Assembly: GCA_964614865.1 (NCBI GenBank)
Contig: CAZTNO010000002.1
Location: 1 to 41,225 of the forward strand
Source: an uncultured Clostridia bacterium
GTDB lineage: Bacteria; Acidobacteriota; Aminicenantia; UBA2199
Length of the DNA: 41,225 nucleotides
Direction: 5' to 3'
A program made the position numbers and the translations under genes. This document shows positions 6,960 through 32,847 of this stretch, one piece after another. Under the pieces are notes generated by a model that ran no database searches, was not told where the DNA came from, and saw nothing but the letters and a program-made list of their open reading frames with translations. Numbering within the stretch: position 1 is the first letter of the stretch; each line of letters begins with the position of its first letter.

Positions 6960-7457
6960 CTACAGCCGGGCGAGCACCTTTTTCATCAACTGGACCGCGA
7001 TGGCCCGTCCGGCATCCTCGGTGCTCCCGGGCACCATCATGGTGATCAACAGGTAGCTGCCCGCCTTGAACGAGTTGAGCTGAATCATGCCGTAGCCCGG
7101 GTTGAGAAAAAAGGATTGGTCACCGAGCCCGGGAACCACGGTCACCTTGGCCTTGCGTTTCTGGAAGGCGGCCAGGATGCGGTCGGGGGTCTCGCCCGCC
7201 CCCAGCGGCTTGACCAGCAGGCTGAAGGTGCCGTAGGGGGGGATGCGGTAGTCGCACGAAGACCCGGCCGCGGCATTGACCACGCCGTTGGGCTTGCCCG
7301 CCTCGACCGGCTTGCCGATCGCCTCCTGGATCTCGGCCTGGGTCAGCAAGGAGCAGGGCGCCTTGCCGGCGGAGTACACAAGCCCCCCCGCCACCAGCAA
7401 AACGAGGGCGACGGGGACGAGCACCTTGGCTCCGATCGAAGCAACGAAACGGGACAT
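6960..7457 (-). CDS. exported hypothetical protein (signal peptide)
   Basis: MSRFVASIGAKVLVPVALVLLVAGGLVYSAG looks like a signal peptide. A GGAGGTG SD precedes ATG 7457. I recognise no family. Confidence 0.5.
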   Translation of the reverse strand: MSRFVASIGAKVLVPVALVLLVAGGLVYSAGKAPCSLLTQAEIQEAIGKPVEAGKPNGVVNAAAGSSCDYRIPPYGTFSLLVKPLGAGETPDRILAAFQKRKAKVTVVPGLGDQSFFLNPGYGMIQLNSFKAGSYLLITMMVPGSTEDAGRAIAVQLMKKVLARL

Positions 7458-7505
7458 GGCCACCTCCGGGGGTCGGACCCCTAAAAGGGACCCGAAGCAA
7501 CCCGC

Positions 7506-7535
7506 ATCATACCGGAAATCGCTTGCCATTGCCAA
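7506..7535 (-). promoter_or_regulatory. possible promoter TTGGCA-N18-TATGAT for the exported-protein gene
   Basis: On the minus strand, ttggca (7535..7530) and tatgat (7511..7506), about 50 nt upstream of ATG 7457. Confidence 0.3.
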
Positions 7536-7636
7536 GCACCCTCCGCGAGCCGATCCTCCTCCAGGTCATCCATCTGCTACTTTTCCCTTTTCCCTTGCGG
7601 GTGAGGACGATGCCGAACAGGATCAGGGATTCAGCT

Positions 7637-8995
7637 TCACGGCGAAGCAGGTGCGACCTCCTGTTCCGCCCCCACCCATAAACTTTCGGTCAGCAAGAAC
7701 TTCCAGGCAGGAACCAGGCGGATCGTCCCTCTCACTCCAGTCAACTCGCGCTCTTCCCGGCGGGTGACGATAGTCGCATTGTCCACCCCGGTCTCGGCCA
7801 TGGCATCCCACAGGACGCTCGTTTCCCGCTTTTCGGTATCTCCGTTGGCCAAGGACTCACACACTTGGATGAGGCGAGGTTTTCCGGCTCGGTCGGGAAC
7901 GACCAGATCCACCTCCCCTCCGTTGCGAGTCCGGTAGTAGAAAAGGGACGGTTGGTGGCGCCGCAGGGCCGTGAATACCAGATTCTCCAGCAGGTGCCCC
8001 GTATTCGCCTGGATTCCAGACGAGACCGAGGTGACCAAAGCATGGTCGATGGCGTAGATCTTCTTGGGATTGACCTGACGCCGAGCCAGCGAGGTGTCGA
8101 ACAGGGGGACCGTGAAAAGGAAATAGGCATCCTCCAGCCACTGGAGGTATTCCGCCACCGTACTCTTGGGCACCTTGTGGCCCAACGCTTTGAGGTAGCC
8201 AGAAAGGCTGTTGATCGAGTAGAGTGAGGCGACGTTGTCCACGAGCCGTCGGGCCAGGTCTACCAACGCCTTGGGATGGGCGATGTCGTGACGCTCGATC
8301 AGGTCCCGGAACAATACGGCATGAAAGTACTCCTGATGGACGCGAACGCGAGTTTGCCGCTCGAGTCCCAACACCTCCGGGAACCCGCCACCCTGCCAAA
8401 ATCCCGCGAATTCCTTCTCCACCATGAGTCGCTTTCGGGTGGAGAGGGGCTGCGTGCGATCAACCCCTCTCGCATCGAGGTACTCCGCAAACGAGAAGGG
8501 GAAGAGTTCCCAGGAGAGCGCGCGACCGCGCATCTGGGTGGCGACTTCACGCGACAAGAGTTGGGCAGACGATCCCGTCAGCACGACCTGACATTTTTCG
8601 GTGCGCATCAATCGGTCGATGAAGGGTTCCCAATGTGGCATCGACTGGATCTCATCGAAAAAGCAGTACACCGTCTCGGTGTTTTTCTTTTCCGGAAAAA
8701 GCGAGAAGTACGCATCCACCACCGAGGACAATCCCGCCGTCTGCAAGGGCGCGAGGCGGTCGTCAAAGAAATTCACATAGAGGAGGTTGTTTCTGGAAAC
8801 CCCGGAGGCGAGCAACTTCTCCATCATCTGGAACAGACAAGTGGATTTCCCGCAGCGACGAACCCCGATCAGGACGGTCGCTTTTCCGGGAACGCTGTCG
8901 ATGGCCAGATGACGTGGGACCCCTGAAAATGGCTGACTCTCGTGGAAATCGAGGATCAGTGAGCGGATGATTTCGCGCATCGCACCCCCCTGCAT
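7637..8995 (-). CDS. AAA-type ATPase of the DUF4143 (COG1373-like) family
   Basis: P-loop GVRRCGKST lies near the N-terminus. The overall layout matches the AAA_14 + DUF4143 ATPases as I recall them. ATG 8980 (MREIIRS) is an alternative start. Confidence 0.65.
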   Translation of the reverse strand: MQGGAMREIIRSLILDFHESQPFSGVPRHLAIDSVPGKATVLIGVRRCGKSTCLFQMMEKLLASGVSRNNLLYVNFFDDRLAPLQTAGLSSVVDAYFSLFPEKKNTETVYCFFDEIQSMPHWEPFIDRLMRTEKCQVVLTGSSAQLLSREVATQMRGRALSWELFPFSFAEYLDARGVDRTQPLSTRKRLMVEKEFAGFWQGGGFPEVLGLERQTRVRVHQEYFHAVLFRDLIERHDIAHPKALVDLARRLVDNVASLYSINSLSGYLKALGHKVPKSTVAEYLQWLEDAYFLFTVPLFDTSLARRQVNPKKIYAIDHALVTSVSSGIQANTGHLLENLVFTALRRHQPSLFYYRTRNGGEVDLVVPDRAGKPRLIQVCESLANGDTEKRETSVLWDAMAETGVDNATIVTRREERELTGVRGTIRLVPAWKFLLTESLWVGAEQEVAPASP

Positions 8996-13679: not shown

Positions 13680-14380
13680 TGCACCTGCGTCGGTTTTTCG
13701 TTCCGGGCCCAATCGAAGCGACCCCCCGGCCTATCGAGGGCGGCGAGTTTCACCACCTCAAGACAGTGCTACGCGCCCGCCTTGGCGAGGAGATCGAGCT
13801 GGTCGACGGCCAGGGGCGGCTGGGTACCGGCCGGATCCTGCGCATGGAGAGCCGGCGCGCCCTGGTCGGGATCGAGCGGGTCGAAACGGTTCCTCCGCCT
13901 CCCCCGGGGGTGGTGGTCGCCTGCCCGCCCCTGAAACACCACGCCATGAACTGGATGGTGGAAAAACTCTGCGAACTGGGGGTCGACGAGATCCGCCCCA
14001 CCCGCTTCGAGCGGACCGATGGCACCACCGCCCTCGATGCCGGAGAGCGCTGGCAAGGGCTCGCCCAACAGGCCCTGAAGGTGAACCGGCGGCTGTGGCA
14101 GACCCGGATTGCCCCGCTGTCCCCGCTGGATGACGTGCTGACGGCAGCGCCGGCGTTTGCCGCCCGCATCGCCGGCGACCTGGCGGGCGCTCCATGGCCG
14201 CAACACCCCCTGCCCCGCCCCACCCTGCTGCTGATCGGCCCGCCGGGAGATTTCACCGCCGGGGAGTGGCAGCGCATCGCCGCCGCCGGTTTTTCCCGCC
14301 ACCACATCGGCACCTGCCTGCTCAAAAGCGAAACCGCGGCCATCGCCGCCGCCGCCCTGCTGGTCTCATGCTCGAACTGA
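13679..14380 (+). CDS. rsmE: 16S rRNA (uracil1498-N3)-methyltransferase RsmE
   Basis: MHLRRFFV...HHLKTVLRARLGEEIELVDGQG...LLIGPPGDFT...LLKSETAAI matches the RsmE pattern. Its start shares the A of the dnaJ TGA (TGATG). Confidence 0.8.
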   Translation: MHLRRFFVPGPIEATPRPIEGGEFHHLKTVLRARLGEEIELVDGQGRLGTGRILRMESRRALVGIERVETVPPPPPGVVVACPPLKHHAMNWMVEKLCELGVDEIRPTRFERTDGTTALDAGERWQGLAQQALKVNRRLWQTRIAPLSPLDDVLTAAPAFAARIAGDLAGAPWPQHPLPRPTLLLIGPPGDFTAGEWQRIAAAGFSRHHIGTCLLKSETAAIAAAALLVSCSN

Positions 14381-15321
14381 ACGGCCTGCTCGGCAAGTAC
14401 CAGATCGAGAAAAAGCTGGGCTCCGGAGGCTTCGGTACCGTCTACCTGGCCGAAGACACCATGCTCCGGGTGAAGCGGGCCCTCAAGATCCCCCACCGCA
14501 ACGCTGCCCAGCTCGAGAAGATGACCGAAGAGGGGCGCGTGCAGACCCGCCTGCTCGATCATCCCAACATCGTCAAGCTGCTGACCCTCGAGTCCATCGA
14601 CGGCATCTTCGTGATGGTCATGGAGTACATCGAGGGCACCGATCTGGAAAAGATGATCGACGAGCAGGAGACTCTCGACATCTCGGCCGCCCTGCACTAC
14701 CTGCGCCAGATCCTGTCGGCGCTCGAATTCGCCCATAATCACCGCATCCTGCACCGCGACATCCGCCCGTCCAACATCCTGATCACCAAGGCGGGCAACC
14801 AGGTGAAGATCACCGACTTCGGCACCTCCACCCTGCTCGATGACGCCAAGCCGTTCGCCACCACCCGCATCGGCTCCCCCCCCTACATGGCCCCGGAACA
14901 GTTCGAGGGCAAGGCGGTCTTCGCCTCTGACCTCTACTCGGCGGGCTGCCTGTTCTACGAGATGGTCACCGGTTTCCCGCCCATCGTGCTGGCCAACCCG
15001 ATGGAGATCTACAACCGCGCCAGGGCCGGCGATTTCCCCTCGCTGGAGAGCAAAAACCACCGAATTTCTTCGGAATTGAACCGGGTGATCATGAAGGCGC
15101 TGGCCCCCGCCGCCCGCGACCGCTATCCGACCGCCGGCGAATTTCTGGCCGAGTTGGACCGCCAGGAAAACAGGAGCGCCGACATCCACCAGGTGATGGA
15201 GGACATCCACCACCGCATCCAGGTCCGCGAAACCCGGATCGACCACGTGTGCTGGAACTGCCGCAAATCGTTCCCCGCCAGCGGGAGGAACCGCTGCCCG
15301 TACTGCGGGGAAGAGCGATGA
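14368..15321 (+). CDS. small cytoplasmic Ser/Thr protein kinase with C-terminal zinc-ribbon (CxxC...CxxC)
   Basis: GSGGFGTVYLAED, ALKI, HRDIRPSNILI, DFGTS, GSPPYMAPEQ. The C-terminus reads CWNCRKSFPASGRNRCPYCG. Start set at ATG 14368, overlapping the rsmE end by 13 nt. The Arg/Pro-rich extension from 14194 is judged an artefact. Confidence 0.85.
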   Translation: MLELNGLLGKYQIEKKLGSGGFGTVYLAEDTMLRVKRALKIPHRNAAQLEKMTEEGRVQTRLLDHPNIVKLLTLESIDGIFVMVMEYIEGTDLEKMIDEQETLDISAALHYLRQILSALEFAHNHRILHRDIRPSNILITKAGNQVKITDFGTSTLLDDAKPFATTRIGSPPYMAPEQFEGKAVFASDLYSAGCLFYEMVTGFPPIVLANPMEIYNRARAGDFPSLESKNHRISSELNRVIMKALAPAARDRYPTAGEFLAELDRQENRSADIHQVMEDIHHRIQVRETRIDHVCWNCRKSFPASGRNRCPYCGEER

Positions 15322-15341: not shown

Positions 15342-15626
15342 ATGGACTATCTGACCAAGATCGAAGGGCGCCAGGTCGCCCACATCGTCCTGTTTGCCCT
15401 GAGCACTTGCGTCTGGTGCCGCCGCACCCGACAGCTGCTCGACAGCCTGGGGTTGGCGTACGCGTACACCCATGTCGATCAGCTGGTCGGCGAATCGGCG
15501 CGCAGGGCCGAAGAGGATCTGGCTCGCTGGAACCCGATGGGATCCTTTCCCACCCTGGTGATCGACGACCGCACCGTGATCACCGGATTTGCCGAAAAAA
15601 AAATCCGCGAGGCCCTCGGTGTCTGA
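15342..15626 (+). CDS. glutaredoxin/thioredoxin-fold protein (CVWC active site)
   Basis: HIVLFALSTCVWCRRTRQLLDSLGLAY...FPTLVIDDRTVITGF is a glutaredoxin-like fold. An AAGGAG SD lies 6 nt before ATG 15342. An alternative ATG at 15318 overlaps the kinase stop (ATGA). Confidence 0.75.
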   Translation: MDYLTKIEGRQVAHIVLFALSTCVWCRRTRQLLDSLGLAYAYTHVDQLVGESARRAEEDLARWNPMGSFPTLVIDDRTVITGFAEKKIREALGV

Positions 15627-16134
15627 GCCCCTCCCCCCGATCAGCGACGAGCAGGTTGCCCGCCTGGCCGACCGGCTGGAGCGCGAGGCCGAGGCCGGAG
15701 GCTACCACCTCAACCCCGACCGGCAGTTCACCCTGGAGCTGGTCGCCGGTTTGCTGGAAAACGAGCGCCGCTACGGCTACCCTTCCTGCCCCTGCCGCCT
15801 GGCCGAGGGGAACCAACCGGCCGACCTCGACATCGTCTGCCCTTGCGACTACCGCGATGCCGACCTGACCGAACACGACGCGTGCTACTGCGCCCTCTAC
15901 GTCGCCGGCAAGATCGCCCGCGGAGAGGAGCCCGCAGCACCGATCCCCGAACGACGTCCCCCCAAAAACCTGCGCGCCCTACCGGCGCCGGCTGCGGGCG
16001 TTCCGCTGCGGGCCCCGCTGCCGCTCCCCGTCTGGCACTGTAGGGTGTGCGGCTACCTGTGCGCCCGCGAGAGCCCCCCCGAGACTTGCCCGATCTGCAA
16101 AGCGAAGAAAGACCGATTCCAACGATTCTGGTGA
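15619..16134 (+). CDS. ferredoxin:thioredoxin-reductase catalytic-subunit-like domain fused to a C-terminal rubredoxin-like domain
   Basis: YHLNPD...YPSCPCRLA...DIVCPCDYRD...DACYCALYV is the FTR catalytic Cys pattern (CPC...CPC...CxC). The C-terminal WHCRVCGY...CPICKAKKDRF is a rubredoxin-type Cys4 motif. Start uncertain: GTG 15619 has a GAGG SD 6 nt upstream; the frame is also open from TTG 15589. Confidence 0.8.
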   Translation: MSEPLPPISDEQVARLADRLEREAEAGGYHLNPDRQFTLELVAGLLENERRYGYPSCPCRLAEGNQPADLDIVCPCDYRDADLTEHDACYCALYVAGKIARGEEPAAPIPERRPPKNLRALPAPAAGVPLRAPLPLPVWHCRVCGYLCARESPPETCPICKAKKDRFQRFW

Positions 16135-17410: not shown

Positions 17411-18032
17411 TCCGGTCCGTCACGAAGTGCTGGCGGTCGGTGCGCTCCAGACCAACTGCTACCTGGTCTGGGGAGAGGGACGCAGCGATTGCCTGGTGAT
17501 CGATCCCGGCGCCGAGGGAGAGCGGATCGTCACCCGCCTGCGCGGGCTGGGCCTCACCCCCGCGGCCATCGTGCTGACCCACGGACACTGGGACCATTCG
17601 GGCGGGGAGTTGCCCCTGCGGAAGGCGTTTTCCGTTCCCCTCTACCTGCACCCGGCCGACCAGCCGGTCCTGTCCTCGGCAATCAATCGCAGCATGGCGG
17701 GCGATTTTGGCGTGGAGCCCCCCACCACCACCGATCACCCCCTGACCGACGAAAAAGAAACAACGCTGGCCGGTTTGGTTGTCGAGGTGCTGGCCACCCC
17801 CGGCCACACCCCGGGCTCGGTGGCCCTGCGGATCGGCGACCGGTTGTACTCGGGAGACACCCTGTTCGCCGGTTCGGTCGGGCGAACCGACCTGCCCGGA
17901 GGCGACTTTCGCCGCTTGCAGGACTCGCTGGCACGACTGTGCCTCCTCCCCCCCACGACCCGGGTCTTCCCCGGCCACGGAGAGTCGACCACCCTGGCGG
18001 TCGAGATCGCCACCAACCCCTACCTGCCATGA
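17400..18032 (+). CDS. MBL-fold metallo-hydrolase (glyoxalase II-like)
   Basis: VLTHGHWDHSGG (HxHxDH), TPGHTPGS, GDTLFAGSVGRTDLPGG, PGHG. It overlaps the apgM end by 11 nt. Confidence 0.85.
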   Translation: MAPDPVRHEVLAVGALQTNCYLVWGEGRSDCLVIDPGAEGERIVTRLRGLGLTPAAIVLTHGHWDHSGGELPLRKAFSVPLYLHPADQPVLSSAINRSMAGDFGVEPPTTTDHPLTDEKETTLAGLVVEVLATPGHTPGSVALRIGDRLYSGDTLFAGSVGRTDLPGGDFRRLQDSLARLCLLPPTTRVFPGHGESTTLAVEIATNPYLP

Positions 18033-18943
18033 GCGGGGACGCCCAGGACCCCTGGCCAGGACGCTTTCTGGCCCACCTGGAGATCGAACGCGGACTGGCC
18101 AAAAACACCCTGCTCTCGTACCGGCGCGAGTTGGAGAAGTACGCCCTCTTCCTGCGCGAGCGAGGCCTGGACGCCCAAGCCGCCGAGAGCCCGCTGATCC
18201 TGGAGTTTCTGGCCCGCCAAAGCCAGGGAGGGCTGTCCTCTGCCTCGCAGGCGCACCTGCTGTCGGTGCTCCGTTCGTTTTACCGTTTTCTCACCCGCGA
18301 GGAGGTCCTCGCCTCTTCGCCGATGACCGGCATCGACTTCCCCAAGAAATGGCAGCGCCTCCCCCACTACCTCAACGAGGAAGAGGTCGACGCCCTGCTG
18401 GCCGCCCCGAACGCTACCGACCCCGCGGGGCTGCGGGACCGCGCCCTGCTGGAACTGTTGTACAGCACGGGCATGCGCATCTCGGAAATCGCCGACCTGA
18501 CGCTGGACCGCCTCTACCTCAGCGAGCGGTTCGTGCGGGTGTTTGGCAAGGGGAGCAAGGAGCGCATCGTGCCCTTCGGCGAACGGGCGGCCACCTCCCT
18601 CTCCGATTACCTGGAGCGGGGGCGGATCGCCCTGCTGGACAAGCGGCACAGCGAAGCCGTGTTCGTCTCCCGCCGCGGCGGGCCGTTCACCCGCCAGGGG
18701 CTGTGGAAGATCATCACCGCCTTCGGCCGGCAGGTGGGCGTGGGCGACCGCCTGACCCCCCACGTGCTGCGCCACTCGTTCGCCACCCACCTGCTCGAAC
18801 GGGGGGCCGACCTGCGCTCGATCCAGCTGATGCTGGGTCATGCCAGCATCACCACCACCGAAATCTACACCCACCTGGCCCGCGACCAGATCCGCTCGGT
18901 TTACGACCAGGCCCACCCCCGTAGCCGCAAGGGGAGCAAGTAG
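18029..18943 (+). CDS. xerD: tyrosine site-specific recombinase XerD (XerC/XerD family)
   Basis: FLAHLEIERGLAKNTLLSYRREL, LYSTGMRISE, VFGKGSKERIVP, HVLRHSFATHLLERGADLRSIQLMLGHASITTTEIYTH. The ATG overlaps the MBL stop (ATGA). Confidence 0.85.
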   Translation: MSGDAQDPWPGRFLAHLEIERGLAKNTLLSYRRELEKYALFLRERGLDAQAAESPLILEFLARQSQGGLSSASQAHLLSVLRSFYRFLTREEVLASSPMTGIDFPKKWQRLPHYLNEEEVDALLAAPNATDPAGLRDRALLELLYSTGMRISEIADLTLDRLYLSERFVRVFGKGSKERIVPFGERAATSLSDYLERGRIALLDKRHSEAVFVSRRGGPFTRQGLWKIITAFGRQVGVGDRLTPHVLRHSFATHLLERGADLRSIQLMLGHASITTTEIYTHLARDQIRSVYDQAHPRSRKGSK

Positions 18944-19022: not shown

Positions 19023-20051
19023 ATGGGGACAATCATGGAGCGGTCCAACGTATTCAAACACCACCTCAAGGTGGAGATTCGCCATTTGATTCCGCGTTCT
19101 TCGGTGGCCTTCAACATCTTCATGGAGAAAAACGGCAAGCTCCTCCTCTACAAACCAGGCGGAGAAACCATTTCCGAGGAACACATCGATCGCATGCTGG
19201 CCATGGGGTCGGAGTACCTGTTCATCGAGGAAGAAGAACGGCGCGAGGTTTTGGAGTACTACGAGGCCAACATCGACCACATGCTGCAATCGGACCACAT
19301 CCCGCCGGCGCAGAAGAGCCGGATCCTCCATTCGGTGACCGAGAGCATCGTCGAGAAGAGTTTTCAGAAACCCGAAAATCCAGTCAACTACTCCCGGTGG
19401 GAGAAATCGGTCCGCGACAGCTTCGCGTTCATCCTCGACAACCAGGACGTGTTCGAGTCGATGATCACCATCGCCGAAAAAGACGCCTACACCTACACCC
19501 ACTCGGTGAACGTCAGCCTCCTGCTGATGGGGTTTGCCATCGATTCGGGGGTGCAGGAAAGCCAGCTTGTCCACGACATCGGGCTGGGAGGCTTGCTTCA
19601 CGATCTGGGCAAGGCCGAAGTCCCCGACCTGATCCTGAAAAAGCCCGGGGCGCTGTCGATGAACGAGTGGCTGGTGATGCAAAAACACCCCGAGATCGGC
19701 GTCCGCCTCTCCCAGTTTCACCCCCAGATTTCCGAGCAGACCCGCCTGATCATCGCCCAGCATCACGAATCGGTGCACGGCACCGGCTATCCCAAGAAGT
19801 TGACCGGAGATCGCATCGACTACTGGGGCCGGGTGTGCAAGATCGTCGACGCCTACGACGCCCTCACCTCCAACCGCCCCTACAGCTTTGCCGTGACCCC
19901 GGTCGAGGCTCTGAAAAAGATGATCGCCGCCGATTCGTTCGACAAACGCCTGCTCAAGCACTTCATCCATTTCCTCAACCTGGAGCGGATGAATTCGCTA
20001 CGCGACCGTTTCCTGCTGCTCTCTTCCAATCCGGCGGCCTCGGGCAGCTAG
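19023..20051 (+). CDS. HD-GYP domain c-di-GMP phosphodiesterase-type protein
   Basis: HSVNVS...HDLGK...QKHPEIG...HHESVHGTGYPKKL...YDALTSNRPY is the HD-GYP pattern. Start ambiguous among ATG 18948, 18954, 19023 and 19035. Confidence 0.8.
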   Translation: MGTIMERSNVFKHHLKVEIRHLIPRSSVAFNIFMEKNGKLLLYKPGGETISEEHIDRMLAMGSEYLFIEEEERREVLEYYEANIDHMLQSDHIPPAQKSRILHSVTESIVEKSFQKPENPVNYSRWEKSVRDSFAFILDNQDVFESMITIAEKDAYTYTHSVNVSLLLMGFAIDSGVQESQLVHDIGLGGLLHDLGKAEVPDLILKKPGALSMNEWLVMQKHPEIGVRLSQFHPQISEQTRLIIAQHHESVHGTGYPKKLTGDRIDYWGRVCKIVDAYDALTSNRPYSFAVTPVEALKKMIAADSFDKRLLKHFIHFLNLERMNSLRDRFLLLSSNPAASGS

Positions 20052-20383
20052 CGGGCCGAACGCAAGCGGGTGCCGTACTCCACCGACAGGCGGATTTCCG
20101 AGGCGTGGAATTCGCGGGGGAAATAGGCGCCCGACACCCGGCTGTGATTGAGCGAGGCCCCTTCCAGCTGGGCCGCCGAAAGATCCACCCCGCGCAGGTC
20201 GGCCAGTTTCAAATAGGAATTCCTCAGGTCGGCGGTGCGCAGGTTGGCTTTGCTGAGGTCGAGGTTGCTCAGGTCGCACCCGGCCAGGTCGACCGATTGG
20301 TTCATCAAGGCCACCTCGGCATTGAATTTTTCGATCTCCCCGTCCCGCAGGTAGCCGTGAAAAGCGTTTTTGCGGATTTCCAT
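20048..20383 (-). CDS. pentapeptide-repeat protein
   Basis: VDLAGCDLSNLDLSKANLRTADLRNSYLKLADLRGVDLSAAQLEGASLNHSRV shows A(D/N)LxX periodicity. A GGAGGGG SD lies upstream. Confidence 0.8.
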   Translation of the reverse strand: MEIRKNAFHGYLRDGEIEKFNAEVALMNQSVDLAGCDLSNLDLSKANLRTADLRNSYLKLADLRGVDLSAAQLEGASLNHSRVSGAYFPREFHASEIRLSVEYGTRLRSAR

Positions 20384-20400
20384 TTCGCCCCTCCGCGGCG

Positions 20401-20429
20401 ATTATGGCGGCATGGCGGCGAAATGTCAA
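20401..20429 (-). promoter_or_regulatory. promoter TTGACA-N17-CATAAT for the pentapeptide-repeat gene
   Basis: On the minus strand, ttgaca (20429..20424) and cataat (20406..20401), 17 nt before ATG 20383. Confidence 0.5.
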
Positions 20430-20499
20430 TTCCACCCCCGCAAACCATGCCTTTACTCGGCAATAGACCTGATCTGAGGAGCCAAGGAGAGAAATGAAC

Positions 20500-21120
20500 T
20501 CAGTTTTCTTGCCGACGCAGCGGTTGGCGGATAACGGTTTTCCAATGGGCAGGATTGGCTTTGCGGATGTCGGAGAGATATATTTCGTGGTGTTTCCCCG
20601 ACAGCTTGCCGCCCAGAGAGGCGATGAAGGCATGCACCCTGGCGATGGTCGGCCCTTCCGCGGAGAAAGGGCCCACGTGAAGGATCTGGGCGCTTTCCCC
20701 CTCGGCAAATTTCTCGAAGCGCAACAGGGTGAGCGCGGGCAGCCCCTTCTTGTTTCCGACTTCAGCGATGGTGTCGCGCACCTGCGCCGCCGAAACAAAC
20801 TCGGGCTGCATGATCATCATCGTCCACTTCCAATCGGACTTGTCACCATCGGTAAAGGCCGCCATGTCATCGGCCCACCACAGCCCTTCCAGCGGCAAGA
20901 CACCGTAGTCGATGGCCAGGGCCTTCTTCACCTTGAACTTGATTGCGTAGGAAACGGAGAATAGCGCCTCAACAGCCTCCTGGTAGGCTTTCGCAGTGTT
21001 GGGATCGCCCCGGCCGTCGACCATCAAAAAGTTCATGGCCGGTACCTCGACCAGCGAGGCTTCCCTGGCCTTCGGCAGGTAAAGGTGCCCGAGAACCTTT
21101 TTGAAATCGATCTTTTTCAT
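20500..21120 (-). CDS. GyrI-like small-molecule-binding domain protein
   Basis: MKKIDFKKVLGHLYLPKAREASLVEVPAMNFLMVDGRGDPNTAKAYQEAVEALF...ILHVGPF resembles GyrI-like proteins. A GGGAGA SD lies upstream. Only the last 206 codons of the 519-aa track ORF look real. Confidence 0.65.
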   Translation of the reverse strand: MKKIDFKKVLGHLYLPKAREASLVEVPAMNFLMVDGRGDPNTAKAYQEAVEALFSVSYAIKFKVKKALAIDYGVLPLEGLWWADDMAAFTDGDKSDWKWTMMIMQPEFVSAAQVRDTIAEVGNKKGLPALTLLRFEKFAEGESAQILHVGPFSAEGPTIARVHAFIASLGGKLSGKHHEIYLSDIRKANPAHWKTVIRQPLRRQEN

Positions 21121-21191
21121 GGCTATCTCCCTGTGGGCTAATGAATCCATCCGCTGGCCACGGCGCCCAGGCTGGCAGAGCCCACGATGAT

Positions 21192-22130
21192 TCAGAGCAG
21201 GAGGCCATGAAAAAAGGGGCGAAACCCCACTTTTCTCAAAGCCTCTTGGCTGAGGCCCAAGCCAAGCAGGAAGAGGGTGAGAACCAGGCAACGCTTCGCC
21301 ATTGCCGTAACCAGCCCGCCTGCCGGCCGGAGCACCGGAAAGTAGGTCACGAGGGCCGCTGCCAACAAAAAACCCAGGATAAACCAGGGGCGCTTGGCCT
21401 TGGGCTGGCTGGTTTCCTGCCCCTTCCGCCTGGCAACCCAATAGCCGAGCACCAGCGTAACGGGCACGATCCATAAGGCCCTGGCAAGTTTGGTGGTCGT
21501 GGCCACCAGGAGGGCCTCTGCCCCGTAGGCCGAGGATGCTCCCACCACACTGGAGGTGTCGTGGATGGCCAGGGCGGCCCAGAGACCAAAAGGGCGTTGG
21601 CCCAAGTGGAGGGCTTGGCCCACCAGGGGGAAAATGATCAGGGCCGCCGCATTGAGCAGGAATACCGTGGCCAGAGCCAGGCTTGTGTCTTCCTCGTCTG
21701 CTCGCAGGACGGCGGCGGTGGCGGCGATGGCACTTCCTCCGCAAATGGCCGTCCCCACGCTCACCAGGAGGGCGGTGGACTTTCGCACCTTGAGCCAATT
21801 CCCCAGGGCGTTTCCCATAAGCAGCGTCAGGAGGATTCCCGCCATGGTCAGCCCGAGGCCCTGAAGACCCACCCGGGCCACCACCCCGAGGTTCATGGCG
21901 GCACCCAGCCCCATCACCGACCAGGCGAGCAGTTTGGAGGTCCAGGCCCGGGTCTGCGGGAGGTGGGGATTGCCCAGGCTCAAGGCGACCACGACGCCCA
22001 AAACAAGGGCGGCCCAGGGGGGAACTGCTCGCCAGCGGGGGAGCTCCGGAAAAAGGCAAAGCACGCCCAGGATCGCGATGACCAGGGTAGAAACCAGCTT
22101 TCGGTCAAAACCAAAAAGCTTTCTAGACAT
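21192..22130 (-). CDS. YeiH/UPF0324-family membrane transporter (putative sulfate-exporter family)
   Basis: Polytopic membrane protein. ...GAAMNLGVVARVG...GTAICGGSAIAA... is typical of the YeiH family as I recall it. Start at ATG 22130 overlaps the GGDEF gene stop by 8 nt. Confidence 0.6.
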   Translation of the reverse strand: MSRKLFGFDRKLVSTLVIAILGVLCLFPELPRWRAVPPWAALVLGVVVALSLGNPHLPQTRAWTSKLLAWSVMGLGAAMNLGVVARVGLQGLGLTMAGILLTLLMGNALGNWLKVRKSTALLVSVGTAICGGSAIAATAAVLRADEEDTSLALATVFLLNAAALIIFPLVGQALHLGQRPFGLWAALAIHDTSSVVGASSAYGAEALLVATTTKLARALWIVPVTLVLGYWVARRKGQETSQPKAKRPWFILGFLLAAALVTYFPVLRPAGGLVTAMAKRCLVLTLFLLGLGLSQEALRKVGFRPFFHGLLL

Positions 22131-23772
22131 GGGGCGACGGGGATCCCGCAACTTCTGGAAACCCGGAAGGGGGGGGAAGGGTCACGGTCTGGTTGCGGCC
22201 CTGGGCTTTGGCCTGGTAGAGAGCGGTATCGGCCTGGCGCAGCAGGTCGGCGGGCGATCGCTCCGGGTCCACCGGGGAGGCGGAGGTCGCCACCCCCAGG
22301 CTCAGGGTGACCCAAGGGGAGACGGGGGAATCCTGGTGGGGGATCTCGAGCCCCCCGACGGCCTGGCGGATCTTTTCGGCGACGTGGTGGGCCCCCTCGC
22401 TGTCGGTGGCGGGCAGCATCACCACGAACTCCTCCCCGCCGTATCGCGCGGCGAAATCGGACGGCCGGGCCAGCACCTTGCGAATGGTCCGGGCCACCTT
22501 GTGCAGGCAGTGGTCGCCCTGGGGGTGGCCCCAGCGGTCGTTGTAGCGTTTGAAGTGATCGATATCGATCATGACCAGCGACAGGGGGAGACGGTTGCGC
22601 TTGGCCCGCTTCCACTCGACCTCCAGGTGCTGGTCGAACGAACGCCGGTTGGCGATCCCGGTCAATCCGTCGGTGGTAACCAGCCGGCCGAGCTTTTCAT
22701 TGGCCTTGCGCAGCATCTCCTCGGTACGGACGAGTTTCTGGAAACGGCGGGCGTTTTCGATGGGCAGGTCGCAGATGTCTTTGATGGCCAGGGCCAGGTT
22801 CAGGTAGGCATCGAAGTACTCGGGGAAGGCGATCTCCTCGACAGCGACCAACCCCTTGGTCTCCCCCTGGCGAATGCTCTGTACCAGGAACCCCCGGTGA
22901 TCACCGACCGGGCCCTGATCGGTTTTGGCCCGGACCATTCGCTCCCGGACCCGCTCGAGCTCGCCGCCATCCGCAACCGGAGGACGGGCCCACAACCGGT
23001 CGGGCTTGCCGTCCAGATAGTTCAGGTAGTAGACCCGCTGCGGTGCAAAGAGCATGAGGTAGGTGTCGAGCATGGCCTCGATCGCCTCTTCCTCATCCAC
23101 ACTATGGGCCAGGCTGGATAATAGATCGAGGGCCATGGCATTGGTGGCCGACTGGTGCTGCAACACCTGCCGCTCGGCGGCAAACCCCCGCTCCCGGTTC
23201 TGCAATCGCCAGGAGAGCACTGCCCGGGCCAGCAGCAACCGCATTTCGGCCAGCCCGGTGTACACGGTCCGGGCGGGGCGACCGACGTGGCGGGCGAACG
23301 AGCGCAGATTCTTGCCGCTGGCAGGGTCGATGCCGGTGTCGAGCAACACGATCCGGGCGACGGTCTCCTGGAACATCTGCCGGATCGCGTCGGCGTGATC
23401 CCCCATGAGGGCGAGCCGGCCCTGCCAGGACGCAAGCCAGCCGGGGGTGGTCAGGTAGGCTCTTTCCTCCAGCAAGCGGTCGAGCAATGCCGGGTCAGCG
23501 ATCGGTAAAAAACACGGCTCCACCTTGTGGATATGGAACCGCCCGGGCTCCTGGACCAGGTCTTGCAGGCAACAACCGCCGTAGACCTCGACCCGCTCGA
23601 CCTCGCCCAGGCCAGCCACGACTTCGGCGAGTTCATTTCCGGTCAAGGGCGGCCGGCCGCAACGGGCAGGAAAGGTGGCGACGGTGGCCTCGTCCAGCTT
23701 TTCCTCGGCGAGCGCTTTGCGGGCTTCGCACCCCAGGTGCTCGCAGAAGACGAAAACGATGCTAGCGGTCAA
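22123..23772 (-). CDS. DUF1638-like N-terminal domain + central sensory region + GGDEF diguanylate cyclase
   Basis: C-terminus: GLTGIANRRSF...IDIDHFKRYNDRWGHPQGD...RPSDFAARYGGEEFVVML, with GGEEF active site and RxxD I-site. N-terminus: IVFVFCEHLGCEARKAL...VYGGCCLQD...YLTTPGWLASW...IVLLDTG resembles DUF1638. Start uncertain: TTG 23772 chosen; the ORF is open to 23949. Confidence 0.75.
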   Translation of the reverse strand: MTASIVFVFCEHLGCEARKALAEEKLDEATVATFPARCGRPPLTGNELAEVVAGLGEVERVEVYGGCCLQDLVQEPGRFHIHKVEPCFLPIADPALLDRLLEERAYLTTPGWLASWQGRLALMGDHADAIRQMFQETVARIVLLDTGIDPASGKNLRSFARHVGRPARTVYTGLAEMRLLLARAVLSWRLQNRERGFAAERQVLQHQSATNAMALDLLSSLAHSVDEEEAIEAMLDTYLMLFAPQRVYYLNYLDGKPDRLWARPPVADGGELERVRERMVRAKTDQGPVGDHRGFLVQSIRQGETKGLVAVEEIAFPEYFDAYLNLALAIKDICDLPIENARRFQKLVRTEEMLRKANEKLGRLVTTDGLTGIANRRSFDQHLEVEWKRAKRNRLPLSLVMIDIDHFKRYNDRWGHPQGDHCLHKVARTIRKVLARPSDFAARYGGEEFVVMLPATDSEGAHHVAEKIRQAVGGLEIPHQDSPVSPWVTLSLGVATSASPVDPERSPADLLRQADTALYQAKAQGRNQTVTLPPPSGFPEVAGSPSPHV

Positions 23773-24823
23773 GGGGAACCGTTTTCGAGAGCGGGTAGGC
23801 TCCCCAGCGGCGAGCCCCCTCGGCAATGGCGAGCAGGGTCTCTTCGGGCACCTGCCAGGGGATCTCGCCATGATTGTCGGAGAGGATGAAGCCCCCGCCC
23901 GGCCCCCCCTTGGCGATGGCCTGACGCACCTGGCATTCGGTTTCGGCAAGGCTCCAATGCCTCATCTCGATGCCATTGAGGTTGCCGAGGACGGTGATTT
24001 TCCCGGCGCAGGCGGCCTTGACCTCGGCCAGATCCTCCAGGCAACTCGTACCGACCACCGCCACACCGGTGGCCGCGATGTCGGTCAGGGTGGGCAGGAC
24101 CCGCCCCGAGGCCAGGTGGGCGGCGGTGGCGCCCTTGATCCGGGCGATGGTACGCTTGGCGGCGAGAAATCCGGTGCGCAGGTAGAGATCGCGGGGGACG
24201 ATCGAGGAAGAGGAGACGGGATCGAAGTAACAGATCGCCGTGGCTCCGGCCTCGAGCTGGGCATTGGCAAAGGCCACGCAAAATTCCTCGTTGAGACGCA
24301 GCAGTTTTTCGGCCAGGGCGGGGCGTTCCAGCAAAAGGTCGAGGTAGGGGGCAAAGCCCATTTGCATGACCGGCACCGAGAACGGCGACATGACCACCCC
24401 GATGATCGGGCATTCGTCGCCGACCCGGGCCTTCAAAGCCGAGGTCGCCCGCAGGACCTTGGTCAGGCAGGGGGTGTCCTGCACCCGGGGCACCTTCAGG
24501 GTGGGGATTATATCGGCATTGGCGATAAACGGGGCCCCCGAATTGGGCGGGCCGTCGGGAGCGTAGATCACCTCCCCCCCCCAGGCTTCGACCTCGAGCG
24601 GGGCGTAAAAGAAGCTGTACAGGCAGTCGTGGCCGAACTTTGCCCGCAACCGGAGTTGCCCTTCGACCACGTGGTCGGCTTTTGCAAAGTACTCTTCGAT
24701 GGAGAGGCCCAGCTCGCGGGCGCCGTGCGTGGTGGCCAGCAGAAACAGGGGGACGCGGTCGGGCTCCCGGTGGCCCAGGGTGGTGAGTACACGCTGCATG
24801 GAGGTCATCTGGGTACTGCTCAT
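23762..24823 (-). CDS. uroporphyrinogen-decarboxylase (URO-D) family protein, MtaA/CmuA-like corrinoid methyltransferase homolog
   Basis: MQRVLTTLGHREPDRVPLF...FGHDCLYSFFYAPLEVEAWGGEVIY...GFILSDNHGEIPWQVPEETLLA is the URO-D/MtaA-like pattern. A GGGAGGA SD lies upstream. The ATG overlaps the upstream stop (ATGA). Confidence 0.75.
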   Translation of the reverse strand: MSSTQMTSMQRVLTTLGHREPDRVPLFLLATTHGARELGLSIEEYFAKADHVVEGQLRLRAKFGHDCLYSFFYAPLEVEAWGGEVIYAPDGPPNSGAPFIANADIIPTLKVPRVQDTPCLTKVLRATSALKARVGDECPIIGVVMSPFSVPVMQMGFAPYLDLLLERPALAEKLLRLNEEFCVAFANAQLEAGATAICYFDPVSSSSIVPRDLYLRTGFLAAKRTIARIKGATAAHLASGRVLPTLTDIAATGVAVVGTSCLEDLAEVKAACAGKITVLGNLNGIEMRHWSLAETECQVRQAIAKGGPGGGFILSDNHGEIPWQVPEETLLAIAEGARRWGAYPLSKTVPLDR

Positions 24824-25452
24824 GATCGTCCTCCCAAGACACCCTGGACCAGTTCCACCGCATCGGCCGCCGAACGGCCCATGGCATCGGCGCCGACCTC
24901 GCGGCTCAGTGCGCTGTCGTAGAGGAAAGGGGCGCCGCCGACAATCACCTTGACCCCGGCCTTTGCCGTGCGCAACTGGTCGACCACTTCGCGGACCCGC
25001 AGCGCCGAATTCAGCATCAAGGTGGAGAGGAGGAGAACCCGCAACCGGTCGGCCTGGGCCCGACGCACCACGTCGGAAACCGATATCTGGCCGTAGTCCC
25101 GCAAGTCGTATCCGGCCGCCCGCAGGGTGGTGCAGACGATCCGCTTGCCGAGCAGATGGTAGTCGTTCAGGGCAGCAATGGCCATGGGAGGCTGTTTTTT
25201 GCGCTGCGGGTCGCCGGGAGGTAGCAGGGTGTCGACGATCTCCTCGCAGATGCGTCCACTCATGTAGACCTGGGCCAGCGAGGTTTCTCCCCGTTCCCAC
25301 TCCTCGCCGATGCGGGTCAACGCCGGGACGATCCATTGGTCGACCAACTCCATGGGGGAGAGGTGACGGCCGGCATTGGTCACGAGTCTCCTCGCCTCCA
25401 GCCGGTCGAAGGCCTGCAGGGCCCGCTCGAAATCGCTCGATGCTCTTTCCAT
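24820..25452 (-). CDS. cobalamin (B12)-binding corrinoid protein (MtaC/MtbC-like: helical cap + Rossmann B12 domain)
   Basis: ALNDYHLLG is the DxHxxG motif. LLLSTLM is SxL. IVGGAPF is the GG motif. The N-terminal cap helix reads LVDQWIVPALTRIGEEWERGE. An AGGAG SD lies upstream. Confidence 0.85.
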   Translation of the reverse strand: MERASSDFERALQAFDRLEARRLVTNAGRHLSPMELVDQWIVPALTRIGEEWERGETSLAQVYMSGRICEEIVDTLLPPGDPQRKKQPPMAIAALNDYHLLGKRIVCTTLRAAGYDLRDYGQISVSDVVRRAQADRLRVLLLSTLMLNSALRVREVVDQLRTAKAGVKVIVGGAPFLYDSALSREVGADAMGRSAADAVELVQGVLGGRS

Positions 25453-25497
25453 TTTGGAGCTCCTGAGTGGGGGCCCACAAGCAAGGCCCCCGCATAG

Positions 25498-25526
25498 ACT
25501 CTATCCGACCGTCCACACAAAATCAA
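25498..25526 (-). promoter_or_regulatory. possible promoter TTGATT-N17-TAGAGT for the corrinoid operon
   Basis: On the minus strand, ttgatt (25526..25521) and tagagt (25503..25498), about 45 nt upstream of ATG 25452. Confidence 0.25.
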
Positions 25527-25535
25527 GCAAAACCT

Positions 25536-25682
25536 GGGGACGGTTCTTTGAAGTATTGAAGTGTCCCAAAAGTCTCTTTGCCAAGGGCTCTTCAAGTCAA
25601 AGAAAGAAACCCCACCTCGCAGTTGGAAACTACCATCTGACAGCACTCTCGCAACACTTCAATACTTCAAAGAACCGTCCCC
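25536..25682. repeat. 147-bp AT-richer element bounded by perfect 29-bp inverted repeats
   Basis: ggggacggttctttgaagtattgaagtgt (25536..25564) is the exact reverse complement of 25654..25682, with an 89-nt spacer. Both flanking track ORFs translate the same GRFFEVLKC peptide because of it. Confidence 0.9.
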
Positions 25683-25699
25683 CAAGCCCAAACCGAAAG

Positions 25700-31908: not shown

Positions 31909-32847
31909 TCAAATCAGCCCTTTGTCTTCGAGTTGGGCGATTTCCGTTTTCAGGTCCACCCCCAACTTTTCCAGGGCAGCAGGCGAAACCCCCAGAGCAC
32001 TCAGCCCATCCAGCAACGAATGATTGCTGGCGCCGCGGAGGGCTCCGTGCTCGAATCCGTTTTCGCGGCAGTAGTCGTTGGCGACAAACAGGACCAGCGC
32101 CGAGCGAACGTTTGGCCCGGTGCCGGCGAAGGGATCCCGCATGTAGCGGAGGCAGTCGACCACCTCGCGGGGCAACCCCCATCGCCGAATGATTTCCAGA
32201 AGCACCTCGCCGTGGTCGAAACCGAGCATTTCCCGCTCCACCTCGATCAACGGGCAATTCTCGGCAAACGAGGTCCGCAGGGCCCGCAGGAACGGGTCAT
32301 GGCGGAATTGATCGACGATCACCAGCCCCAGGTCGTGCAGCAGCCCGCAGGCATAGGCGGTCTCGCCGGAAAGGGCGAACTCGCGCCGGTGGACGAAGCG
32401 GGCCAGCACCGCGGTGGCCACACTGTGCCTCCACAACCGGGCCCGCGCGTAGGTCTCGACGGTGTCCCCGTGGGCGAACAGGTCGCACACTTTCTGGCTC
32501 AACACCAGGCGCAAGGCCGCCTCGAAGCCGATCAGGATGATGGCATCCTCGATGGTGCTGTAGGAACGGCCGCGGGAGTAGAATGCCGAGTTGGCCAAAT
32601 GAAGAATGCGGGCCGCCAGCGGGGGGTCGATCTCGATGATCTGTTTCAGCTCCCGCACCGACGCCCCGGGGCCGGTCAGCACCCCGATCACCTCGGACAC
32701 CACCCGGCCGATCGAAGAGAGTTGGCCGCCTTCGAGCTCGGTCAGCAACCCCGCCAGGCCGTCCCCTTGCGATTGCTTTTCCGTTTTTCCCCCCCGGTTT
32801 CGTCGCACGCCCCGCAATGGTGTACCAAAACCGGAAAAATAAATCAA
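31909..32847 (-). CDS. HDOD-domain signalling protein
   Basis: ELKQIIEIDPPLAARILHLANSAFY...IEDAIILIGF...HSVATAVLARF...ACGLLHDLG is the HDOD pattern. The TTG start at 32847 is uncertain. Confidence 0.7.
   Translation of the reverse strand: MIYFSGFGTPLRGVRRNRGGKTEKQSQGDGLAGLLTELEGGQLSSIGRVVSEVIGVLTGPGASVRELKQIIEIDPPLAARILHLANSAFYSRGRSYSTIEDAIILIGFEAALRLVLSQKVCDLFAHGDTVETYARARLWRHSVATAVLARFVHRREFALSGETAYACGLLHDLGLVIVDQFRHDPFLRALRTSFAENCPLIEVEREMLGFDHGEVLLEIIRRWGLPREVVDCLRYMRDPFAGTGPNVRSALVLFVANDYCRENGFEHGALRGASNHSLLDGLSALGVSPAALEKLGVDLKTEIAQLEDKGLI

Follow-up and report, generated by a model that had tools for sequence, protein, structure and literature searches.

The window analysed here, a 41,225-nt stretch of DNA (contig CAZTNO010000002.1, positions 1 to 41,225 of the forward strand, GenBank assembly GCA_964614865.1) from an uncultured Clostridia bacterium with the GTDB lineage Bacteria; Acidobacteriota; Aminicenantia; UBA2199, carries a cassette of three overlapping genes on the minus strand. 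They encode a corrinoid protein, an MtaA-like member of the uroporphyrinogen decarboxylase (URO-D) family, and a sensor protein that begins with a DUF1638-type domain and ends in a GGDEF diguanylate cyclase domain. We propose, at a probability of roughly 0.55, that the trio would form a self-contained three-component corrinoid-based sensory module, which converts the state of its bound corrinoid into a cyclic di-GMP (c-di-GMP) or kinase signal. The observations behind this proposal are the gene order, translational coupling, domain content, motif integrity, cross-phylum conservation and output swapping of the cassette.

Gene layout and conservation of the cassette

The genes of the cassette and the parts of its third protein are arranged as follows.

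25453-25699, minus strand: intergenic leader 5' of the corrinoid protein gene, presumed promoter region (sequence reading)
24820-25452, minus strand: corrinoid protein gene, 210 aa (Pfam B12-binding_2 and B12-binding)
23762-24823, minus strand: URO-D/MtaA-like gene, 353 aa (PF01208)
22123-23772, minus strand: sensor/cyclase gene, 549 aa, stop codon at 22123-22125 (PF00990)
23257-23772, minus strand: sensor residues 1-172, DUF1638-type alpha/beta domain (PF07796 via relatives; AlphaFold2 model)
23110-23250, minus strand: sensor residues 175-221, long connecting helix (AlphaFold2 model)
22738-23109, minus strand: sensor residues 222-345, middle alpha/beta domain (AlphaFold2 secondary structure; conserved columns)
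22180-22737, minus strand: sensor residues 346-531, coiled-coil linker and GGDEF domain (PF00990, TIGR00254, Foldseek)

The corrinoid protein gene has an AGGAG 7 nt ahead of its ATG. Its end overlaps the URO-D gene in an ATGA at 24820-24823, where the URO-D ATG (24823-24821) lies over the upstream TGA (24822-24820), and the URO-D and sensor genes overlap by 11 nt, between the sensor TTG (23772-23770) and the URO-D TAG (23764-23762). An earlier note on this DNA, made from the letters alone, had described the same three genes and both overlaps, and our reading of the sequence agrees with it in every coordinate. The TTG start of the sensor is consistent with the N-termini of its homologues (M-x-x-K-I-x-F-x-x-C). 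A consensus scan gave no convincing sigma-70 site on the minus strand, and promoter and terminator predictions were uninformative. When the whole window was scanned against Rfam, no family matched, and a cobalamin riboswitch upstream of the operon was rejected on this ground.

We followed the cassette beyond the window in two samples. A scan of one genome per species, for which a narrower alignment replaced a too variable 13-sequence alignment, yielded 174 genomes with a relative of the sensor, and 80 of these were kept for counts. A search of metagenome contigs anchored on the URO-D protein yielded 398 relatives, of which 80 were kept, with 61-73% identity. In approximately 72 of the 80 species genomes, tblastn placed the corrinoid protein and URO-D genes directly upstream of the sensor; three further loci have too little upstream sequence to judge, and one or both genes are absent at loci L023, L026, L062 and L063. 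The carriers include Desulfobacterota (Smithella, Syntrophales, Desulfobulbia, Geobacter, Geomonas and Geomesophilobacter), Nitrospirota, Acidobacteriota, Chloroflexota, Actinomycetota, Cloacimonadota, Riflebacteria, Verrucomicrobia, a Clostridia metagenome-assembled genome (MAG) and Magnetococcales, as well as relatives of Beggiatoa, methanotrophs (Methylobacter, Methylomonas) and many Rhodocyclaceae and Burkholderiales; Beta- and Gammaproteobacteria are thus represented. Chance is excluded, because the gene order is kept across phyla.

The details of the arrangement recur as well. Look-ups of individual relatives showed trios of identical order and overlaps, each amid unrelated flanks: on a Smithellaceae chromosome and a Nitrospirota contig (GGDEF form), on two metagenome contigs where the sensor has a HisKA-HATPase_c end and a REC-PAS-GGDEF-EAL protein comes next, and in a 4.3-Mb genome where the sensor has a short Cys-rich tail. 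The corrinoid protein and URO-D genes overlap by 4 bp in 54 loci, while the URO-D/sensor junction is a 4-11 bp overlap or a short gap in most loci, 11 nt being commonest. Identity to the window proteins is 55-74% for URO-D, 45-64% for the corrinoid protein and 29-49% for the sensor, and the URO-D protein is the most constrained member of the cassette, since its identity is highest across phyla.

In the URO-D-anchored sample, the corrinoid protein gene is directly upstream of URO-D in all 69 evaluable loci, and DUF1638 and/or the middle domain is encoded downstream in 67 of 70 evaluable loci, distributed as follows.

45 of 70 loci: DUF1638 and middle domain
16 of 70 loci: middle domain only, then Cys-rich tail, PAS-GGDEF or kinase
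6 of 70 loci: DUF1638 only, 5 of them on contigs too short to show more
3 of 70 loci: neither domain

DUF1638 is found downstream of URO-D in 51 of the 70 metagenome loci. At the middle-domain-only loci (e.g. L113, L118, L135, L154 and L170), the gap after URO-D is too small for DUF1638. Since the middle domain occurs without DUF1638 at these loci and, conversely, a Verrucomicrobia contig has a bare DUF1638 protein beside the corrinoid protein/URO-D pair, each of the two domains has its own, independent link to that pair. One locus in a Syntrophales MAG (L027, 6001-7592, CAXXWJ010000002.1) carries a sensor frame that ends at 299 aa, with a GGDEF domain 60% identical to the window's in another frame (7074-7592), which could be a frameshifted or split gene copy or an assembly error.

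Pfam annotation of the 80 sensors from species genomes identified HATPase_c in 44, HisKA in 37, GGDEF in 24, PAS in about 15 and REC in 9; several others end in an ICxxCKKIRDDxGxW...H..C..C tail that has no Pfam model, or in a short coiled coil. A constant N-terminal part joined to interchangeable outputs is the signature of a sensory input module. The GGDEF output occurs in 24 of the 80 relatives, and is a minority output compared with the commoner histidine kinase (44 of 80).

The Cys-rich tail, which is present in many sensors, spans about 50 residues with the pattern (L/I)PICxxCKKIR(D/N)DxGxWxxxExYxxxHSxxxF(S/T)HGxCPxC and contains four cysteines and two histidines. It was located in L006 (8001-9293), L113 (5238-5957), L118 (1826-2545), L135 (2244-2993), L154 (5093-5839) and L170 (3416-4168), and also in L048, L059, L064, L066, L071, L072, L083 and L086. 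From its pattern, it looks like a small metal-binding output domain.

The three proteins

The corrinoid protein is built of a four-helix cap and a Rossmann B12-binding domain, matching PF02607 (B12-binding_2, E 1e-13) and PF02310 (B12-binding, E 6e-17). The DxHxxG, SxL and GG motifs attributed to it earlier were located with these domains: the His-on motifs are D97-x-H99-x-x-G102 (DYHLLG, residues 97-102), S143-x-L145 (S-T-L) and G172-G173 (VGGAP, residues 171-175), and 70 of 70 relatives keep them, together with W52 and Y63 of the cap. The best NCBIfam model was TIGR02370, for methyltransferase-cognate corrinoid proteins, at 79.9 bits, below its 215-bit cut-off. The closest PDB sequences were MttC (7xcn, 64 bits), MtmC (3ezx, 60 bits) and the D. 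hafniense O-demethylase corrinoid protein (4jgi, 57 bits). By sequence, this is a distinct clade, placed outside the named substrate-specific corrinoid proteins. We also considered membership of the CarH/AerR-type photoreceptors, which failed. In the CarH cap motif, W-x9-E-H, W52 falls at the position of the tryptophan, but positions +10 and +11 after it are V/I and Y rather than E-H, and CarH itself gave only about 25 bits in the PDB sequence comparison, far under the 64 bits of MttC.

The URO-D protein matches PF01208 across the full profile (E 3e-48) and scores 103 bits with TIGR01463 (mtaA_cmuA, cut-off 235), above its 39 bits with the hemE model TIGR01464 (cut-off 303); the URO-D assignment of the earlier note is confirmed, and identity with the uroporphyrinogen decarboxylase HemE was rejected on the latter score. 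Equivalog models of the MtaA/MtbA type gave 61-69 bits against cut-offs of 400-600. On these scores, the protein is tentatively placed in an unnamed clade in the methyltransferase (MtaA/CmuA) branch of the URO-D superfamily, and the label "MtaA-like" appears to say little about its chemistry. The MtaA zinc site, H-x-C...C, which activates the thiol acceptor, was compared through an alignment to MtaA (4ay7) over query residues 118-270, from which the first two positions of the motif were read: the zinc His is kept and the Cys is replaced by Ala, while the region of the second zinc Cys falls past the end of the alignment and was not placed. The corresponding H236-x-A238-S239-G is itself conserved: 70 of 73 relatives have H236, and 72 of 72 have A238-S239. 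The protein is not a zinc-thiolate methyltransferase of the coenzyme M type, because this conserved H-x-A-S replaces H-x-C. A C-terminal motif, D316-N-H-G-E-I-P322, is invariant among the relatives, and an N-terminal E-P-D-R-V-P is conserved.

The earlier note had likened the N-terminus of the sensor to DUF1638, and the profile check of this assignment came out differently for the window sequence and for its relatives. A default Pfam scan of the full protein did not report DUF1638, and the N-terminus alone scored 18.2 bits against PF07796 (E 0.0024, profile positions 42-157 of 161), short of the 27-bit cut-off. However, 78 of the 80 species-genome sensors, which are 29-49% identical to it over residues 1-350, match DUF1638 at E ≤ 0.001 (best 4.9e-15, 45.7 bits, in L008), and a search with sensor residues 1-350 retrieved 72 relatives, nearly all of which carry a precomputed PF07796 label. 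The assignment is thus secure only by way of relatives, and on transitive homology the N-terminus belongs to a divergent subfamily of DUF1638. Run against 1.84 billion cluster representatives, a profile built from the DUF1638 part gave 1407 clusters at E ≤ 0.001 and 689 clusters (50% identity) at E ≤ 1e-30, and nearly all of the top 150 clusters have the domain at the very start of a far longer protein.

AlphaFold2 modelled the whole sensor with a predicted local distance difference test score (pLDDT) of 89.4, rising to 92.6 for residues 1-185, and residues 1-171 form a seven-stranded alpha/beta domain. Foldseek comparison of the isolated DUF1638 model with the PDB returned nothing at E < 1e-3; the best matches (E 2e-3, TM 0.2-0.3) were generic Rossmann-like folds and gave no functional lead. 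Conserved motifs include AYLTTPGWLxxW and LLDTG. Four cysteines, C10, C38, C68 and C87, are near-invariant (74/74, 76/79, 78/79 and 79/79 aligned relatives, respectively), and each directly follows one of the strands beta1-beta4 in the model. If the strands are parallel, as in Rossmann-like folds, this suggests that the four Cys lie on one edge of the sheet and form a metal or Fe-S site. A profile search for distant DUF1638 proteins in a word-indexed protein database gave 12 short proteins, of which two were usable sequences; these two, of the canonical type, keep three of the four Cys and have an extra CxxC.

The earlier note named only DUF1638 and the cyclase in this protein, but the two are not joined directly: in the AlphaFold2 model a long helix and a further alpha/beta domain of approximately 120 residues lie between them. 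In the model, residues 175-221 form the long helix, residues 227-314 a small alpha/beta domain and residues 317-369 a helix leading into a coiled coil, followed by the GGDEF domain (residues 375-531). The middle domain has the element order helix-strand-strand-helix-strand-strand-helix and the motifs LFAP (241-244), G294-F295, Y323-L-N-L-A, C334 and IENAR (338-342), with C334 present in 68 of 80 relatives. It had no match in Pfam, GAF included, even at E 10, and its family profile had no meaningful match among PDB sequences; it looks GAF-like only by its predicted topology and its IENAR end.

The cyclase of the third protein is intact, as previously described. The GGDEF domain (residues 366-528) matches PF00990 at E 3e-53 over profile positions 2-161 of 161, and also TIGR00254. 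It contains DIDHF (403-407) and GGEEF (445-449), with an RxxD I-site, RPSD (436-439), placed exactly five residues ahead of GGEEF; the family consensus is RPGD. By sequence, it has what a competent cyclase with an allosteric I-site requires. Foldseek of the full model returned GGDEF proteins only (WspR, PleD and IsPadC), with E down to 2e-21.

Proposed mechanism and competing explanations

In the proposed sensory module, the 210-aa protein would bind a cobamide in the base-off/His-on form, as the corrinoid proteins of methyltransferases do. The URO-D/MtaA-like protein would dock on it and alter the state of the cobalt centre, the likeliest route being the addition or removal of a methyl group, with a small molecule as donor or acceptor. 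The sensor would then read the state of the corrinoid protein through DUF1638 and/or the GAF-like middle domain, and the signal would run along the long helix and the coiled coil to the dimeric GGEEF domain, turning c-di-GMP synthesis up or down, with the RxxD I-site adding product inhibition. In other genomes, the same input would drive a histidine kinase or other outputs. The contact among the three proteins, the methyl transfer chemistry, the identity of the signal and the domain that reads it are inferred; the signal may be methylation state, redox state, B12 supply or a methyl donor. The proposal draws on the nearest relatives of the corrinoid protein, which are of the methyltransferase type, and on its invariant His-on motifs, as well as on the complete cyclase domain with an IsPadC-like layout in the model, on the lack of any recurrent metabolic neighbour and on the genetics of DUF1638.

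The earlier note had suggested that corrinoid status is read out as c-di-GMP through the DUF1638 fusion. A functional unit with a constant input and swapping outputs agrees with that idea, which is right in substance, but the data do not assign the reader role to DUF1638 alone, and GGDEF is the minority output. On the distribution described above, DUF1638 may not be the signal reader, as the middle domain is at least as tightly linked to the corrinoid protein and URO-D. We tend to regard the middle domain as the indispensable transducer and DUF1638, with its probable four-Cys metal site, as an accessory for servicing or docking the corrinoid protein that is in most cases fused to it, because middle-domain-only variants exist and DUF1638 is genetically recorded as an accessory of corrinoid enzymes. 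A bolder claim, which we offer tentatively as possible but not favoured, is that the cassette represents a new class of signal input, with a dedicated corrinoid protein and a methyltransferase-family enzyme at the front of one- and two-component signalling. The stimulus would be the transfer of a methyl group, or the cycling of cobalt between Co(I), Co(II) and methyl-Co(III), and DUF1638 and/or the GAF-like domain would convert it into c-di-GMP synthesis or kinase activity. In its extreme version, a sensor cysteine, at the Cys4 site or C334, would be methylated in a corrinoid-dependent manner, by analogy with Ada.

Several observations weigh against a corrinoid-based sensory module. Two sensors (L026 and L062) have no corrinoid protein or URO-D gene within 6 kb. 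A Verrucomicrobia contig encodes the corrinoid protein, URO-D and a bare DUF1638 protein of 188 aa without any signalling domain, and because this triad exists, the trio may have an enzymatic life of its own. The cassette contains a single methyltransferase-type protein, and turnover systems usually need two half-reactions. Methyl transfer itself is an assumption, because the Cys of H-x-C is absent from the URO-D protein and its TIGR01463 score lies under the MtaA/CmuA cut-off. The DUF1638 fold lacks a solved relative in the PDB, and the likeness of the middle domain to GAF is confined to predicted topology and one motif.

The strongest competing explanation, though unlikely, is a small corrinoid methyltransferase composed of the corrinoid protein, URO-D and DUF1638 with a regulator attached, whose middle and GGDEF domains answer a separate ligand. 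A single URO-D-type enzyme would catalyse the two half-reactions, in the manner of MtsA with MtsB in Methanosarcina, while DUF1638 would serve in its usual accessory role, and the fusion would merely co-localise or co-regulate the parts. The stand-alone triad is in keeping with such an enzyme, as are the genetics of DUF1638, which point to enzyme function and not signalling, and the conservation of URO-D, which is as strong as expected of an enzyme. However, no gene for a substrate-specific partner, a transporter or a downstream pathway recurs beside the cassette, nearly all loci have the signalling part while its output type swaps freely, and middle-domain proteins directly follow URO-D even without DUF1638, an association across phyla that an independent ligand sensor would have no reason to keep. 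Somewhat less likely again is a redox or oxygen sensor, in which the DUF1638 Cys4 site carries an Fe-S cluster or redox metal and, with the easily oxidised Co(I)/Co(II) corrinoid, makes the module respond to redox potential or O2 rather than to a methyl donor. The four near-invariant Cys following successive strands of the model, three of them kept in distant DUF1638 proteins, would fit this, and so would the co-occurrence of DUF1638 with RamA-like reductive activators and the many carriers that are anaerobes or live in redox gradients; but variants without DUF1638 retain the corrinoid protein, URO-D and middle domain, Pfam recognised no Fe-S motif in the sensor, and a methyltransferase-family protein as the most conserved part would be left unexplained.

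That same obligatory, highly conserved URO-D partner makes a sensor of cobamide availability improbable. Such a sensor would report holo versus apo corrinoid protein and couple B12 supply to biofilm formation or motility; the invariant B12-binding motifs agree with it, and in an operon without a cobalamin riboswitch sensing at the protein level is conceivable, but known B12 sensing relies on riboswitches or single B12-binding regulators. We consider least probable of all, and hardly credible, a light sensor of the CarH, AerR or photocobilin kind, in which photolysis of the upper ligand controls the cyclase. There is a precedent in the B12-binding domains of photocobilins, which control a GGDEF cyclase by light (PDB 8J2Y; PMC10979010), and W52 occupies the position of the CarH tryptophan. 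Against these stand the closeness of the corrinoid protein to methyltransferase partners in place of CarH, the replacement of E-H by V/I-Y, the lack of a globin or bilin domain, a URO-D partner that has no role in known photoreceptors, and the origin of many carriers in digesters, groundwater and sediments. In order of likelihood, the alternatives to the sensory module rank as enzyme with regulator, Cys4 redox sensor, B12-supply sensor and light sensor.

Genomic surroundings and relation to known systems

Two further genes near the cassette had been pointed out previously.

21192-22130, minus strand: YeiH-family (Cons_hypoth698) membrane protein gene (PF03601, E 1e-56; TIGR00698)
19038-20051, plus strand: HD-GYP gene (PF13487, E 2e-22)

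The YeiH-family gene overlaps the 3' end of the cyclase gene (ATGTCTAG, with ATG at 22130, or a start at TTG 22151), and the HD-GYP gene lies 2.07 kb from the cassette on the opposite strand. Both positions agree with the earlier description, but neither gene is next to the cassette in other loci, and both were rejected as components of the system. Clustering of the flanking open reading frames (ORFs) across the 80 genome loci identified no recurrent second methyltransferase, RamA-like activase, transporter or metabolic gene; the sole recurrent neighbours form a loose cluster of signalling proteins, mostly downstream and on the same strand. Pfam annotation of the rest of the window likewise showed no RamA-like or other corrinoid-related gene. 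It is ordinary chromosome, with grpE-dnaK-dnaJ, pyrR-pyrB-pyrC, cysK and two Ser/Thr kinases among its genes.

These kinases are of the eukaryotic type (1055-3451, minus strand, with an N-terminal TPR region; 14194-15321, plus strand) and, together with an HDOD protein (31909-32847, minus strand), make the window rich in signalling genes. Two small minus-strand genes (20048-21150) separate YeiH from the convergent HD-GYP gene: one encodes a GyrI-like small-molecule-binding protein (about 20500-21150), the other a pentapeptide-repeat protein of 111 aa (20048-20383), and the stop of this second gene overlaps that of HD-GYP. Immediately upstream of HD-GYP, 17489-18943 (plus strand) encodes a XerC/XerD-type tyrosine recombinase (Phage_int_SAM_1 and Phage_integrase), the true start of which is probably internal to the ORF; the G+C content is about 58% over 19-21 kb compared with 62-67% on either side. 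Elsewhere, 15589-16134 (plus strand) encodes a 181-aa protein with an FeThRed_B ferredoxin-thioredoxin reductase catalytic-subunit domain and a C-terminal rubredoxin-like domain, and 7637-8995 (minus strand) encodes an AAA_14 and DUF4143 ATPase adjoining a 191-aa ORF without a Pfam match (6960-7535).

On plasmid pAZKH of Azoarcus sp. KH32C (L088, NC_020548.1, 266983-279561), the cassette occurs in its kinase form, with the RefSeq labels "cobalamin-dependent protein", "uroporphyrinogen decarboxylase family protein" and "ATP-binding protein". Its neighbours include formylmethanofuran dehydrogenase subunit B, a quinoprotein dehydrogenase-associated SoxYZ-like carrier and a quinoprotein relay metallohydrolase, and an HD-domain phosphohydrolase lies just upstream. 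Taken with the several methanotroph carriers, this context is a weak hint towards one-carbon (C1) compounds. On the Nitrospirota contig L002 (3855-6187), a B12-binding radical SAM protein and a class I SAM methyltransferase are encoded directly upstream on the same strand, a pair not seen in the other loci examined.

With at least 689 clusters for the DUF1638 sensor type and 174 species genomes, the cassette is widespread and not the oddity of a single genome. Fusion of DUF1638 to an easily assayed output provides a direct experimental handle on what this domain binds or senses, and the new-input reading, if true, would for the first time assign DUF1638 a biochemical function. Among the carriers are many syntrophs, methanotrophs, sulfur oxidisers and denitrifiers, in which a link from corrinoid or C1 metabolism to biofilm or motility would matter ecologically. 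Cultured carriers include Geomesophilobacter sediminis Red875 (cassette at about 79.1-82.3 kb of NZ_JAEMHM010000004.1), whose sensor shares the GGDEF architecture of the window, as well as Geomonas sp. Red32 and Azoarcus sp. KH32C (kinase form).

Many input domains are known for c-di-GMP cyclases and histidine kinases, but none is known with a corrinoid protein and a methyltransferase-type enzyme as front end. The earlier note knew of no description of this wiring, and we likewise found none of the cassette in the searchable literature on corrinoid or cobalamin paired with diguanylate cyclase, GGDEF or kinase. The kind of system, a cofactor-protein partner that controls a cyclase or kinase, is known; an input made of a corrinoid protein and a methyltransferase-family protein is undescribed in the literature searched.

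DUF1638 itself has a genetic record. Methionine synthesis in Phaeobacter inhibens depends on a DUF1638 gene adjacent to that for the B12-binding part of a split methionine synthase (Price et al, 2018; PMC5764234); DUF1638 co-distributes with a RamA-like protein, and the authors offered no functional proposal (PMC5764234). A 2025 paper repeats the idea that DUF1638 helps in the reductive recharging of cobalamin (PMC12478193). The corrinoid methyltransferase systems (MtaABC, MtsAB, MttBC/MtbA and the bacterial O-demethylases) resemble the cassette in their small cap and Rossmann corrinoid protein with His-on motifs, their adjacent URO-D/MtaA-branch partner and the presence of DUF1638 in the same operon. 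The cassette differs in having no linked second methyltransferase, MtaB/MttB-type MT1 or RamA-like gene, in a URO-D protein without Cys at the MtaA H-x-C position, and in a DUF1638 that is fused to signalling domains and lies amid unrelated genes rather than in a catabolic cluster.

The photocobilins work by light and combine a B12 domain and a globin domain that binds bilin with a fused GGDEF domain (PMC10979010), as had been predicted (PMC8717448); they are the only experimentally shown link from B12 to c-di-GMP that we found (PMC10979010). The photocobilin-cyclase AbDPcob (PDB 8J2Y), CarH and AerR are alike in that a B12 cap and Rossmann module controls a GGDEF cyclase or regulator. Unlike the cassette, they have the B12 domain fused directly to the output and use adenosylcobalamin photolysis and a bilin-binding globin domain, whereas the corrinoid protein of the cassette is separate, resembles methyltransferase partners and is paired with URO-D and a DUF1638/middle-domain receiver. 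The best structural match to the full sensor model, IsPadC (PDB 5LLW, 6ET7; E 2e-21 over 404 columns), likewise has a sensory alpha/beta domain that a long coiled-coil linker connects to a GGDEF dimer, but its chromophore-binding PAS-GAF-PHY input is unrelated in sequence and it has no partner proteins.

The haem-GAF sensor kinases MsmS and RdmS are encoded beside corrinoid methyltransferase genes in Methanosarcina acetivorans and are proposed to regulate methyltransferase expression. Here too a signalling protein whose GAF-type domain bears a Cys is genetically linked to corrinoid methyltransferases, but these kinases are without DUF1638 and the associated methyltransferases are catabolic. 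In H-NOX operons, a stand-alone cofactor-binding sensor protein is encoded with a GGDEF-type enzyme or a histidine kinase and controls it by protein contact, the output varying between species. The cofactor there is haem, the signal a diatomic gas, no enzyme partner takes part and the receiver is not a DUF1638/middle-domain protein; what H-NOX and the cassette share is the separate cofactor-protein partner and the varying output.

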